A stretch of DNA of 64,000 nucleotides. It comes from Eledone cirrhosa. Taxonomy: Eukaryota. The stretch spans positions 40,672,001 to 40,736,000 of the forward strand of contig OZ024755.1 of NCBI GenBank assembly GCA_964016885.1, given 5' to 3'. The position numbers and the translations under genes are program-made. The notes beneath the pieces are model-generated. The model saw only the letters and a list, made by a program, of their open reading frames with translations. It searched no databases and was not told where the DNA came from. Below are positions 32,573 through 39,482 of this stretch, piece by piece (position 1 is the stretch's first letter; each line of letters opens with the position of its first letter).

Positions 32573-32662
32573 GAGATAAGTTTACCCCGGGTTCAATCGG
32601 GGGTAAGCACAGTAAATAAGGTACTCAATACATAGCAGAGTATAAATATTTAATATAGAAAT

Positions 32663-32712
32663 GGCTTCTACAGGACAAGAAATGTTTCATTCGGAGAAAT
32701 CATCAGGAGGCT
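32663..32712 (-). ncRNA. Type I hammerhead ribozyme (family A)
   Basis: GCCTC CTGATGA T-TTC TCC GAA-T GAAA CA tttcttgtcc TG TA| GAAGC. Core intact, one stem I mismatch, U-U at the base of stem II. Confidence 0.72.
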
Positions 32713-32759
32713 TCCTGATCATTTCTCCCGAATGAAACAGTTCTAGTCCTGTAGAAGCC
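32709..32759 (+). ncRNA. Type I hammerhead ribozyme, core mutated (CUGAUCA)
   Basis: Stem I GGCTTC/GAAGCC, stem III ACAG/CTGT, GUA site. G8->C probably inactivates it. Confidence 0.65.
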
Positions 32760-32837
32760 TTTCTATATTATATACACATATATATATATATATATATATA
32801 TATATATATATATATATATATATATATATATATATAT

Positions 32838-33014
32838 AGGAAAATGTTTAACCACGACGGCAGAGCTCAAGCCGTTTCGACGGCTATTTCTGGAGTCCAG
32901 AAATAGCCGTCGAATCGGGGTTAAACATTTTCCCATTACCCACTCTACTACCCCAAGTATTGAGTACTCTGGTGCGTTATGGTCCACCTGGTTCCTTACC
33001 ACACTTCCTTCGTT
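32838..33014 (+). mobile_element. Family B element with a fold-back 5' end and half-hammerhead
   Basis: Hairpin centred at 32895. Minus-strand GAAACGGC..GCCGTC at 32856-32878. Homologous to 33135-33249 and 39282-39482. Flanked by (TA)n. Confidence 0.75.
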
Positions 33015-33134
33015 ATATATATATTTATATATATATATATTTATATATATATATATATATATATATATATATATATATATATATATATATATATATATAT
33101 ATATATATATATATATATATATATATATATATAC

Positions 33135-33249
33135 AACGAAGGAAATGTGGTAAGGAACCAGGTGGACCATAACGCACCAAAGTACTCAATACTTGGGGTA
33201 GTAGAGTGGGTAATGGGAACCGGTAAGACCCCGGTAAGACCGGTTCCTA
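33135..33249 (-). mobile_element. Family B 3' fragment, tail-to-tail with the previous copy across (TA)n
   Basis: 33135-33218 is the reverse complement of about 32931-33014. Confidence 0.8.
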
Positions 33250-33389
33250 TATATATATACAGTGAGATTAATGTATAAAGTTATCTCTAATGCTTAGACA
33301 TCTCAATGAAATGATAAGATATATTAATAAATCATCTACTCAGACAAGTAATTAAAATAAGATGGTTTTACTCATATATATATTAATTA

Positions 33390-33448
33390 ATTTATTAAAA
33401 TAATAGATTAAAGTTTAAGCAAAGAATCGCTGCTTTCACCCTTAACGG
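33390..33448 (-). mobile_element. Family D fragment
   Basis: Near-identical to 34912-34970. Confidence 0.7.
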
Positions 33449-33640
33449 TATTACTATATATATACATATACATATGTGTGAGTGTGTGTGTCATATATAT
33501 ATATATATATATATATATATATATATAAATATATGACACACTCACTCACACATATGTGTATGTATGTGTATGTATATATATATATATATATGTATATATA
33601 CGATATTAATAAATGGAAACTATATTTATAAAACCATATT

Positions 33641-33705
33641 TATTTCATTATACATATTTCAGGGATACCACATTAAATTATGATATGCCTTCATCAGACA
33701 AAATA
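33641..33705 (-). ncRNA. Minimal type I hammerhead ribozyme (family C)
   Basis: TATTTTGT CTGATGA AGGCATATCAT..GTGGTATCCCT GAAA TATGTA TA| ATGAAATA. 8-bp stem I with G-U pairs, long stem II, near-palindromic loop III. Confidence 0.82.
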
Positions 33706-33941
33706 CAATATATAACAGTTTTACAAATAAGCTTTGACGTACCCTTTTAAAATGCAACCATTATTTTAAATAGAACTTTTGCATATATGTATATATATAT
33801 ATATATATATAATTGTGTATATATATATATATATATATATATATATGTGTGTGTGTGTGTGTGTGTGTGTGTGTGTGTGTGTGTGTTGATTTAACACTTC
33901 ACTGCTCACAAGTGTTTTTTAAGCTTCATATCATGTTTCCC

Positions 33942-34012
33942 TATTTTATCTGATGTGAACGCAAATATCATCCCATGATGATATTTGTTTTTGAAATGCG
34001 CATAATAAAATA
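33942..34012 (+). ncRNA. Minimal type I hammerhead ribozyme, A9U variant (family C-like)
   Basis: TATTTTAT CTGATGT GAACGCAAATATCATC ccat GATGATATTTGTTTTT GAAA TGCGCA TA| ATAAAATA. Perfect 8-bp stem I, palindromic TGCGCA loop. Confidence 0.75.
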
Positions 34013-36489: not shown

Positions 36490-36703
36490 GTCTAAGTGAT
36501 AAACTAGGATTGGTATTCCAAATATGATTTGGTTTACAGTAATCTTTCTGCCTTTGTTAATATTATAGCTTTAAAGAATTAGCTTTTAATGAACTCCCTT
36601 TTCTTTAAATCCTTCACCCAATGACCTCCACCCATCCCAATCCCCCCCTCTCCTACCACCAGAAAAGAAAAGATATAAATACCACTACTTACTTGGACAG
36701 CCA

Positions 36704-36752
36704 GCTCCCTGATGATTTCTCACTAATGAAACAGTTCTAGTCCTGTAGAAGC
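36704..36752 (+). ncRNA. Type I hammerhead ribozyme (family A; element extends to 36842)
   Basis: GCTCC CTGATGA TTTCTCACTAAT GAAA CAG ttctagtc CTG TA| GAAGC. Core intact, stem II eroded. Confidence 0.65.
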
Positions 36753-36860
36753 CCTTCTATATTAAAACTTTTATACTCTGTTATGTATTGAGTACCTTAC
36801 TTACTGTGGTTACCTCCGATTCAACCCGGAATAACTTATCTTATATATATATATATATAT

Positions 36861-37545
36861 AAACAAATAACGAAACGAAATTAAATTTCGTTTCGTTTGT
36901 AACTCACTTTTGTATGACTGACGCTTAAACAATTAAGTTAAAAATGTACATCCACATATGTATACTGAAATACTAGTATGCATATGAATACACACACGTA
37001 TACATATGTAGATGTACCGAGTTTTTCACTGGTCACTTTACTGTGAGTGTCCAGCTATTCTGTATGTAAACACACAGACAAACCGGTTTTTAGAGTCATA
37101 CTGGTTTTTGAGGAAACACCTTTCCTCTATTCTCCAGAAAGCCAGACAAGGAATATTGAACTAGTTTCGTTGTTGTTACAACTCATCAGCAATATTTACC
37201 TATCTTCCGGCCTTTCTAGAGAATCGTAAAAGCACATATCGTTATATGCTTTTTCTATGAAAATTAGTAGTGGGCAGACTAATTTGCATAGAGCGTGAGT
37301 ACGTACCGGTTCAACGGAGACGATAAAAACAAATAACGAAACGAAATTAAATTTCGTTTCGTTTGTAACTCACTTTTGTATGACTGACGCTTAAACAATT
37401 AAGTTAAAAATGTACATCCACATATGTATACTGAAATACCAGTGAAAAACTCGGTACATCTACATATGTATACGTGTGTGTATTCATATGCATACTAGTA
37501 CTTCAGTATACATATGTGGATGTACATTTTTAACTTAATTGTTTA
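36861..37545 (-). mobile_element. Retrozyme-like element, family G: 466-nt monomer, ~1.24 units, plus a 107-bp inverted arm
   Basis: Direct repeat 36861-36973 = 37327-37439. 37439-37545 is the reverse complement of 36926-37032. One hammerhead per unit. (TA)n flanks. Confidence 0.85.
37152..37196 (-). ncRNA. Minimal type I hammerhead ribozyme (family G)
   Basis: AATATTG CTGATGA GTTGT aaca ACAAC GAAA CTAG TT| CAATATT. Perfect 7-bp stem I, 5-bp stem II, palindromic ACTAGT. Confidence 0.92.
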
Positions 37546-37675
37546 TATATATATATATATATATATATATATATATATATATATGTGTGTGTGTGTGTGT
37601 GTGTGTGTGTGTGTGTGTGTGTGTGTGTGTGTGTGTGTGTGTGTATATATATATATATATAGAGAGAGAGAGAGA

Positions 37676-38085
37676 GAAAGGATAAAAAGGACGATTGATT
37701 ATTCCTTCATTGCATTTATTGATAGGTGACGCGCGTTTCGCCACTGATCAGCTCAAGGTTCGATCTATATCGATCCTACCCGACTCAATAATCGGCAGCT
37801 CGACGGACCCTCTTAAAATGCTATAAGAAAATGAAATATATGCTATGGACCCTTCGTTGAGCTGCCGATTATTGAGTCGGGTAAGATCGATACAGATCGA
37901 ACTTTGATCAGTGGCGAAACGCGCGTCACCTACCGATAAATGCAATGAAGGAGTAACCAATCGTCCTTGTTATCCTTTCAATATAATACACTCTGTATAG
38001 CTCTACACCTCAACACAGAAGTGAACCTAAACATCGAGTGCTCTCCCGGGTGAACCTGCAGTAACTCCAAGTTACACTCCCTAGA
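37676..38085. mobile_element. Family H inverted element with hammerhead 3' halves
   Basis: Arms ~37676-37807 / 37852-37979. GAAAC-GCGC-GTC at 37916-37927 (+) and 37728-37739 (-). The plus arm carries a tail to 38085. Confidence 0.78.
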
Positions 38086-38284
38086 TATATATATATATAT
38101 AATAGGATATGTGTTCCTACACGCACAAGGCGCTAAGGGACACATGTATTGTCCAACCATATGCCAATGTGGTTCAATGGCAGGTTAATAAATTAACGAG
38201 CCAGAACATATATAATCAAGGTTTAGCAAATAAGATAAAGTTTCAAAATAAATTTTAAAAAATTAACTTTACTTACTATGGTTA

Positions 38285-38366
38285 CCTTTACCGAGTCGAT
38301 TTCTATTCTCAAAAATAAACGGAGTCCATACGGCCTTCGTTGCAAAGAAAGAATCTCGTCAGAAGG
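38285..38366 (-). ncRNA. Type I hammerhead ribozyme (family I), with two stem substitutions
   Basis: CCTT CTGACGA GATTCT...AGAATA GAAA TCGACTCGG TA| AAGG. Confidence 0.8.
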
Positions 38367-39012
38367 ATCTTTTCATTCGGAGAATATAAAATTCTCGAAT
38401 TCAAATTACGAACTGGCGCTATTCAAAATTGTTCCCGAGATGAGAGTAAATGAAATGGAATCAATTTTTTCAAGGGCCGAATGTAAAGATAGAGGCAGAG
38501 GCAGAGAGGTCAGATGGCTACTGCTATAACTAGCAGCAGTCAGAACGACCAAATTTTTCTCAACATAGAGGAGAATAGTTATAATAGGATATATGTTCCT
38601 ACACGCACAAGGTAACCATAGTAAGTAAAGTTAATTTTTTAAAATTTATTTTGAAACTTTATCTTATTTGCTAAACCTTGATTATATATGTTCTGGCTCG
38701 TTAATTTATTAACCTGCCATTGAACCACATTGGCATATGGTTGGACAATACATGTGTCCCTTAGCGCCTTGTGCGTGTAGGAACACATATCCTATTATTA
38801 CTATTCTCCTCTATGTTGAGAAAAATTTGGTCGTTCTGACTGCTGCTAGTTATAGCAGTAGCCGAATGACCTCCCTGCCTCCGCCTCTATCTTTACATTC
38901 GGCCCTTGAAAAAATTGATTCCACTTCATTTACTCTCATCTCGGGAACAATTTTGAATAGCGCCAGTTCGTAATTTGAATTCGAGAATTTTATATTCTCC
39001 AAATGAAAAGAT

Positions 39013-39092
39013 CCTTCTGACGAGATTCTTTCTTTGCAACGAAGGCCGTATGGCCCGTTTATTTTTGAGAATCGAAACCGACTCGGTAAAGG
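39013..39092 (+). ncRNA. Type I hammerhead ribozyme (family I), intact
   Basis: CCTT CTGACGA GATTCTT..AACG..GGCC gtat GGCC CGTT..GAGAATC GAAA CCG act CGG TA| AAGG. GUA cleavage predicted after 39088. Confidence 0.93.
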
Positions 39093-39281
39093 TAACCATA
39101 GTAAGTACAGTTAATTTTTTAAAATTTATTTTGAAACTTTATCTTATTTGCTAAACCTTGATTATATATATATATATATATATGTATATATATCTATATA
39201 TATATATGTATATCTATATCTATATATATATATATATATATATATATATATATATATATATATATATATATATATATATAT

Positions 39282-39482
39282 AACGGAGGAAATGTGGTAA
39301 GGAACCAAGTGGACCATAACGCACCAAAGTACTCAATACTTAGGGTAGTAGAGTGGGTAATAGGAACGAGTAGGACCCCGACGGCTGAGCTCAAGCCGTT
39401 TCGACGGCTAATTCTGGACTCAGTCCAGAATTAGCCGTCGAAACGGCTTGAGCTCAGCCGTCGGGGTCCTACTCGTTCCTAT
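39282..39482. mobile_element. Family B element with a perfect 123-bp palindrome (39360-39482)
   Basis: Centre at 39421. GAAACGGCT tgagctc AGCCGTC (stem III plus GUC) at 39440-39462, mirrored at 39380-39402. Confidence 0.82.

Follow-up and report, generated by a model that had tools for sequence, protein, structure and literature searches.

When an insertion consists of two copies of one element in opposite orientation, joined directly at their 5′ ends, how were the two copies made? The question is raised by an island of mixed sequence, ~11 kb long, in a 64,000-nucleotide stretch of Eledone cirrhosa DNA (contig OZ024755.1 of assembly GCA_964016885.1, positions 40,672,001 to 40,736,000; this whole stretch is the window). 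Insertions are densely clustered in the island, with satellite arrays on both sides of it. They are the 5′-truncated pseudo-long terminal repeat (pLTR) ends of hammerhead-bearing Penelope-like elements (PLEs), together with non-coding relatives. The favored answer, with a probability of about 0.7, is that a cut in (TA)n leaves two DNA ends and each of them primes reverse transcription of element RNA, one at the tail end and the other at a fixed site 60–110 nt upstream. That a single RNA serves both ends in each event is held with lower confidence.

Polarity of the arms

For nine named elements, the original prediction described the left arm as minus-sense and the right arm as plus-sense, usually with a tail on one arm while the other stops short. 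Both descriptions stand in 9/9, each element having one tail end and one tail-less end; one start, placed at 34911, really lies at ~34824, since an 80-nt tail had been missed. Self-comparison, motif scans and mapping on references define eight families, A–H, across these nine elements (the references for A, D and G are real copies or trimmed, since automated 5′ extension looped in sub-repeats). Sense could be fixed without recourse to TA flanks, by linked open reading frames (ORFs) for A, C and E, and for B, C, D, F and H by a hammerhead confined to the sense strand. For G it was taken from a GAAAC..GTC hammerhead half together with the tail motif and helix common to the families.

The polarity pattern is real and genome-wide. 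A sample of 92 evenly spaced 10-kb stretches (loci L018–L109; 920 kb of a 3.0-Gb genome) was searched with the eight family references, matches being counted as adjacent when at most 150 nt apart with no TA in between. Direct inverted joins are head-to-head in 50 cases and tail-to-tail in none, so that orientation is not random as tallied genome-wide; there are 10 collinear direct neighbours, and the 50 include two calls (L051, L107) that come from matches within sub-repeats of D. The longer inverted insertions of the sample, in L025, L037, L047 and L051, are head-to-head too (4/4). The sample also holds 12 tail-to-tail pairs, each across a (TA)n. The window has a near-perfect palindrome of this type, centered on (TA)n at 33014–33133, which comes from two separate insertions of family B: a plus-sense tail arm at 32930–33013 and, at 33136–33247, a minus-sense tail arm (33136–33233) with a possible very short plus-sense partner. 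The polarity rule, correct for direct joins, is for this reason limited to them and does not extend to every inverted repeat.

In 35/49 pairs both outer ends have TA no more than 25 nt away, and in 12 more one end only does. Single-orientation copies, which had been said to point their 3′ ends at (TA)n, mostly do so: TA is found at the 3′ end in 45/60 and at the 5′ end in 24/60, against a background of 6.9% (the 60 groups include six arms of long pairs and some members of related families). Two apparent solos finish (at 33233–33247 and 33451–33460) with 6–10 letters that agree with the family's other fixed end, and some solo copies may hide very short second arms.

Two fixed 3′ ends and unequal arms

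In all loci examined there are 174 head-to-head pairs, of which 51 come from the random sample, 48 were incidental, 66 were targeted and 9 are in the window. The unbiased set (n=93) consists of the random and incidental pairs that do not lie at a locus edge. The 3′ ends are bimodal, with two fixed sites per family (0 and −77 in B, 0 and −80 in D, 0 and −63 in E, 0 and −92 in C), and 84 of the 93 unbiased pairs combine one tail end with one tail-less end, the tail being on the left in 41 and on the right in 43. The same combination is present in 57/66 targeted pairs, which favor long tail arms and were for that reason excluded from the count of nesting. In 17 cases a single copy, too, has its end at the tail-less site.

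The arms can also be compared at their 5′ ends. There the tail arm falls short of its partner by >10 nt in 28 of the 84 pairs, extends further in 6 and is symmetric with it in 50 (28 vs 6, p = 2e-4), and 11 of the 28 non-nested pairs have arms without any overlap. The 28 pairs are not products of one cDNA folding back, since a cDNA that folds back yields only an arm contained in that cDNA. In L037 the tail arm measures 474 nt, and the tail-less arm to which it is joined is 3.1 kb long and carries the endonuclease and part of the reverse transcriptase; in L025 and, for a ninth family, in L238/L239, part of the ORF is likewise in the tail-less arm and the tail arm is short. In this ninth family (L238/L239 and other loci), the inverted arms are 3.1–3.7 kb apart with a Hydra-type endonuclease-side ORF piece inside; a simple pattern search of its arms gave no hammerhead core.

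Templates of the two arms

No pair mixes families (0/174). Within families A, B, C and G, rare variants are common to partner arms at 24–52%, against 0.4–3.3% for non-partners, and at common polymorphic sites partners are concordant at 288/309 in B (150 expected), 47/47 in C (25), 73/95 in A (44) and 17/20 in G (12). Such variant sharing points to one source locus per event. The expectation that one mechanism is shared by all families fits, with the qualification that, mixed pairs being absent, each event draws on the RNA of a single family. In L106 (9709–9970), the 3′ end of a family B copy is directly joined to the 5′ end of a family D copy in the same orientation, probably a jump of the reverse transcriptase between RNAs of two families.

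Junctions and 5′ ends

Junctions vary from one insertion to the next: the 174 pairs have 152 distinct junction keys, none occurring more than 3 times. Inserted bases are absent from 82 of 96 measurable junctions, while extra letters between the aligned arms are present in 72/174 pairs, and at many junctions the palindrome is nearly perfect, in some cases falling at self-complementary words. Runs of A and of T are seen at the head-to-head junctions of L111, L136, L074 and L104; additions made to cDNA ends without a template or by slippage could account for them. Three further arm-to-arm joints of family C are present in contigs of a public run (a run that may be of the assembly's own sample).

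The points of 5′ truncation cluster, near −134 in A, −137 in B, −150 in D, −137 in E, −312 in C and −240 in G. They may correspond to RNA 5′ ends, because TATAAATA is ~30 nt upstream of the family A cluster; initiator-like words are present in B and D, these signals not being in all families, and both are presumed to be such by likeness to the consensus. Ribozyme cleavage was considered as a source of 5′ ends and rejected, since 5′ ends do not clearly cluster at the B cut site, predicted near −97.

A candidate binding signal

Some tail arms stop early. Thirteen in unbiased pairs end downstream of the second site or within 8 nt of it (6 in B, 7 in D); nine of the stops are within −13 to +8 nt of a GAG motif and four within 3–6 nt of the second site (counts without a formal test). 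The GAG motif belongs to a potential CTC/GAG helix of 4–5 bp that starts 2–9 nt past the tail-less site in six of seven families (A, B, C, D, E and G), with GCTC/GAGC in D and ACTC/GAGT in the others; the best helix of family C has a 2-nt loop and may pair otherwise. A second copy after the tail end, looked for in A, F and H, is a 5-bp hairpin in A, weak in H and absent in F. Judged from sequence, the helix is a candidate signal for protein binding.

Proposed two-ended priming and its alternatives

The events at such a target might run as follows. The GIY-YIG endonuclease would cut both strands in (TA)n, and each 3′ end would prime on sense RNA at its own start site, with the protein, probably a dimer, bound at the CTC/GAG helix between the two sites. 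Both cDNAs would usually come from one RNA molecule, or at least from one source locus. The tail-primed cDNA would have to pass the bound helix and the second primer, sometimes stopping there and otherwise running to a preferred 5′ stop, after which the two cDNA 3′ ends would be joined through microhomology (0–4 nt) or by way of short pieces, either added or templated. For one RNA to be copied twice along the overlap, the enzyme would need strand displacement, an ability of R2-type reverse transcriptases that is here assumed for PLEs. This would be a fixed-site, regular form of L1-type twin priming. A more specific proposal, advanced tentatively, is that the twin priming is programmed: a helix-bound dimer would set both (TA)n ends on two fixed sites of one RNA, the inverted pLTR with its one-sided tail would be the normal product of one event, and the signal would let non-coding hammerhead repeats use the enzyme.

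Priming from both ends of a break had been suggested for the window from the start, and the non-nested and non-overlapping arms, the unmirrored flanks and in vitro work on a PLE all support it. Other results weigh against it, or against its details. Fifty symmetric and six nested pairs of the 84 are each compatible with fold-back (the symmetric ones alone are ~60%), and the 28:6 asymmetry could come in part from the 60–100 nt longer path of the tail arm. Exact junction microhomology averages 1.20 against 0.72 in a jitter null, with 22 against 12.5 junctions at 2 nt or more, only a modest rise. In family D, 0/14 rare variants in the partners of six pairs are shared, and partners differ at two or more polymorphic sites in 4/70 pairs of B, as they do in 7/24 of A and 1/6 of G (some of this discordance is possibly alignment noise in old copies). 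The variant sharing seen elsewhere can also be explained by two RNAs of one locus or by later conversion of one arm by the other. With regard to the helix, family F lacks it past the tail-less site, the stall data come from B and D only, and the motif was chosen after inspection, to be kept in mind with its shuffle p of 0.008–0.05 per family. Nor did empty sites help: among the loci examined, candidates for paralogous empty sites were only juxtaposed ends of other repeats and no true paralogues, and for three loci in small contigs a second-haplotype copy was found for none of two, the flank of the third being another PLE family. In public runs, from the mapping of which repeats were skipped, no record spanned either of two loci with short TA flanks.

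What else could give head-to-head arms? One primed cDNA might fold back and copy itself, or antisense RNA might prime itself (PMC3846280), the short arm then being trimmed at TA microhomology; this would explain the palindromic junctions, the variants shared between partners and the tail-less ends lying at TA-like words of 2–5 nt. As the general route it is improbable, being contradicted by the non-nested third of the pairs (28/84, 11 without overlap), and it also sits badly with an ORF in the tail-less arm of L037 and L025, with single copies that end at the tail-less site and with the sense RNA and target priming of a PLE in the in vitro experiments described in PMC11167929. Fold-back may make some of the symmetric pairs. 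It could also arise after insertion. Runs of (TA)n are prone to form hairpins, and replication might fold back at them, or chimeras might have been introduced in the long-read assembly. Mirrored flanks are what such events leave, as they do in two of five pairs with tails on both arms (L127, 1191–1809; L202, 344–2247), which are true post-insertion fold-backs; a second large palindrome is present at L202 344–1016. Among tail plus tail-less pairs, however, 0/143 testable ones have mirrored flanks (10 more were not testable), and since mirroring is confined to pairs with two tails, fold-back or chimeric reads exist yet give a different product. The arms furthermore differ in sequence and extent, the junction keys are diverse, and contigs of the public run have further joints of family C, all of which make a replication or assembly origin very improbable.

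A pre-formed palindromic master element, copied as a unit, would account for the clustering of 5′ ends (as in B, A, C and G) and is just as improbable, as the junction letters differ nearly everywhere and the tail is equally often on either side. The remaining alternative keeps priming from both ends and has each end prime on a separate RNA molecule, the two being held by the dimer. In its favor, 56 of the 84 pairs, the symmetric and nested ones, have the same 50–220 nt copied twice, which on one RNA needs the strand displacement mentioned above; in a minority of pairs the arms disagree at two sites or more; and the tandem joining of B to D in L106 indicates that the reverse transcriptase can move between RNAs. 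The lack of any mixed-family pair, the full concordance of C and the four tail arms that stop at the second start site, as from a collision on one RNA, count on the other side and leave two RNAs somewhat unlikely. Two-ended priming is thus retained, with one RNA per event as its less certain part.

Identity of the elements

The assignment of these insertions to PLE pLTR ends with an inverted tail-less arm, made originally from the window, is confirmed by ORF links, hammerheads and arm layout. A single ORF with reverse transcriptase and C-terminal GIY-YIG endonuclease is tied to the pLTR in families A, C and E, all copies being broken or truncated. For A, the ORF begins directly after the tail in L011 and endonuclease-side matches precede the pLTR in L002; for C, reverse transcriptase and endonuclease are both in L037; for E, a reverse transcriptase fragment is in L025. 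No clearly linked ORF was found for B, D, F, G or H in the loci examined (one partial match is beside an H copy in L185), and these families may be non-autonomous. The linked reverse transcriptase has 435 homologues of up to ~800 amino acids, the two top named animal ones being cephalopod proteins; a Pfam scan of five ORF pieces gave no match.

The Hydra clade of PLEs with C-terminal endonuclease is characterized in section 11 of PMC8557442 by DKT, a CxCX5C linker, CxxC, CxH, absence of CCHH, hammerheads and (TA)n insertion, and Hydra-1_Obim is listed with a (TA)n preference in its File S1. The elements here share these features. In place of DKG, family A has DKT (its frame reads SSDKTKN); the family C endonuclease in L037 has the CxCX5C linker, CxxC and CxH and no CCHH, with CxCX5C in L239 as well; and insertion is in (TA)n. 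One departure from the clade is RWR rather than RWK in family A (IRWRAF), a position at which homologues vary between RWR, RWK, RWM and RWE. By clade motifs, families A and C can be classed as probable Hydra-type PLEs. An initial Neptune-type label was dropped once the Hydra motifs had been checked, and the Naiad clade was rejected, since it has an N-terminal endonuclease and no canonical hammerhead is expected in it, whereas here the endonuclease is C-terminal and hammerheads are present.

In an automated scan, B, C, D, F and H and three extra families (I, K and L) have type I hammerhead topology, each time restricted to the sense strand; the cores of B, D and K are one base off. The same scan found no full hammerhead in the references of A, E and G; cores in A and E were found by motif scan. 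Family G (37676–38084) has the GAAAC..GTC half and no canonical CTGANGA, and its ribozyme may be permuted. At the Rfam gathering cut-off there is no hammerhead match in the window, and among eight stretches folded freely only C and F gave clear hammerhead-like folds. Families F and H consist of tandem units, of 466 and 480 nt respectively, with a type I hammerhead and no ORF, and in this resemble animal non-LTR retrozymes.

Relation to known systems

Head-to-head arms, a one-sided tail and (TA)n targeting have already been published, and the elements are ordinary members of a described class. In endonuclease-positive PLEs, an inverted 5′-truncated copy is present at the 5′ end with the tail on one end only (text to Fig. 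2 of PMC8557442; PMC3846280), and PMC3846280 gives head-to-head as the most frequent PLE arrangement and proposes antisense self-priming. Alike in both are the head-to-head arms, the one-sided tail and the palindromes at junctions; as those texts describe them, the tail is 30–40 nt there and 60–110 nt here, where the copies are mostly pLTR ends without ORF. What is added here is a count of the rule of one tail per pair and of the non-nested arms, the non-overlapping ones being a misfit to the self-priming of PMC3846280.

The closest experimental counterpart is the Poseidon element PAc of Anolis (PMC11167929), for which both target strands are described in vitro as cut and extended, with two internal start sites for reverse transcription that bound the tail and a predicted dimer. 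Both-strand cutting, two start sites, AT-rich targets and a predicted dimer are common to the two systems, though PAc is of another clade. Its start sites are reported not to differ between strands, and the text of that paper does not trace the inverted arm to paired priming, whereas the genomic rule here is a different site for each end. In L1, twin priming is put at ~18–22% of insertions, with variable internal sites and a median overlap of 12 bp (PMC12016303). There too, two cDNAs of opposite orientation are made, one primed at the 3′ end and one internally, with a gap or overlap; in the elements described here, pairs and single copies occur in similar numbers, internal priming is at a fixed site and overlaps of 50–220 nt are common. 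Families F and H share with animal non-LTR retrozymes (PMC7229834; bioRxiv 10.64898/2026.07.22.740005) tandem type I hammerhead units without an ORF; they differ in that an insertion is a pair of inverted arms whose ends are fixed at two positions, and the word ‘inverted’ is absent from PMC7229834. A search of the literature on Penelope together with twin priming or head-to-head, with subscription papers such as Arkhipova 2006 outside its scope, gave no paper in which the inverted arm is explained by the priming of both ends, each at a fixed site of its own. The formation of tandem and inverted structures and the bias to microsatellites are named among the open questions of PLE transposition by Craig et al. 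2021 (PMC8557442, section 15). The counts given here discriminate between two-ended priming and the self-priming model already in print, and the concrete start sites and the candidate binding helix can be tested in the existing in vitro assay (PMC11167929).

Elements of the window

The island is bounded on the left by a satellite of 11-mer type (11/24/35-mer; 5–31106) and on the right by a 48-mer satellite (42509–64000; two 48-mers, including 41552–42249). A tRNA gene with an intron, at 32160–32246 on the minus strand, is the only Rfam match and by appearance is tRNA-Tyr. The first pair is of family A, with a minus-sense tail arm at 32573–32707, its 3′ end toward (TA)(GA) beside a CA run (the family is the one tied to a Hydra-type ORF in L011), and a plus-sense tail-less arm at 32710–32770. 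Next is family B, the minus-sense tail-less arm of which (32839–32929) includes a 35-nt junction piece repeating element sequence; its partner is the tail arm of the palindrome described above, which has its 5′ stop near the tail-less site and little or no overlap with the tail-less arm. A tail-less minus-sense copy of family D at 33390–33451 has its 3′ end at a short TA run. Extra family I is a probable head-to-head unit at 33601–33786, a minus arm with a hammerhead being followed by a right end that recurs beside TA in other loci, and extra family K is a plus-sense solo copy at 33888–34041 with a hammerhead-like motif and its 3′ end toward (TA)n at 34042.

The family C pair, which has an ORF-linked copy in L037, has its minus-sense tail arm at 34086–34358 and a plus-sense tail-less arm at 34368–34592, longer at its 5′ end and not nested, with a hammerhead core at 34492. 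In family D, the minus-sense tail arm (34824–35064) is the one containing the misplaced 34911 start, and the plus-sense tail-less arm is at 35063–35113; in family E, with an ORF-linked copy in L025, a minus-sense tail-less arm at 35135–35169 meets a plus-sense tail arm at 35169–35309, with a hammerhead core at 35178. Family F has a minus-sense tail arm at 36862–37443, made of one 466-nt unit and part of a second with a hammerhead core at 37189, and a plus-sense tail-less arm at 37438–37545. The arrangement is reversed in family G, where the minus-sense arm (37676–37847) is tail-less and longer at its 5′ end, and the plus-sense arm (37855–38084) has the tail. The arms of family H, retrozyme-like with its 480-nt tandem unit, are at 38099–38612 (minus, downstream fixed end) and 38609–39169 (plus, upstream fixed end), neither containing the other. 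The last named pair is again of family B, a minus-sense tail arm at 39283–39420 forming a near-perfect palindrome with a plus-sense tail-less arm at 39422–39482. Beyond it is a probable head-to-head unit of extra family L (39585–39833), a minus arm with a hammerhead followed by a plus arm with the CTC/GAG helix, and then a degenerate family B-like fragment at 40523–40618, followed by a 28-nt palindrome.

A plus-sense solo pLTR copy of family A at 35465–36841, its 3′ tail toward (TA)10, is split by an unrelated 744-bp element (35746–36489) with 14-nt terminal inverted repeats and an 8-bp target duplication (35738–35745, 36490–36497), which from the length of the duplication is taken to be hAT-like.

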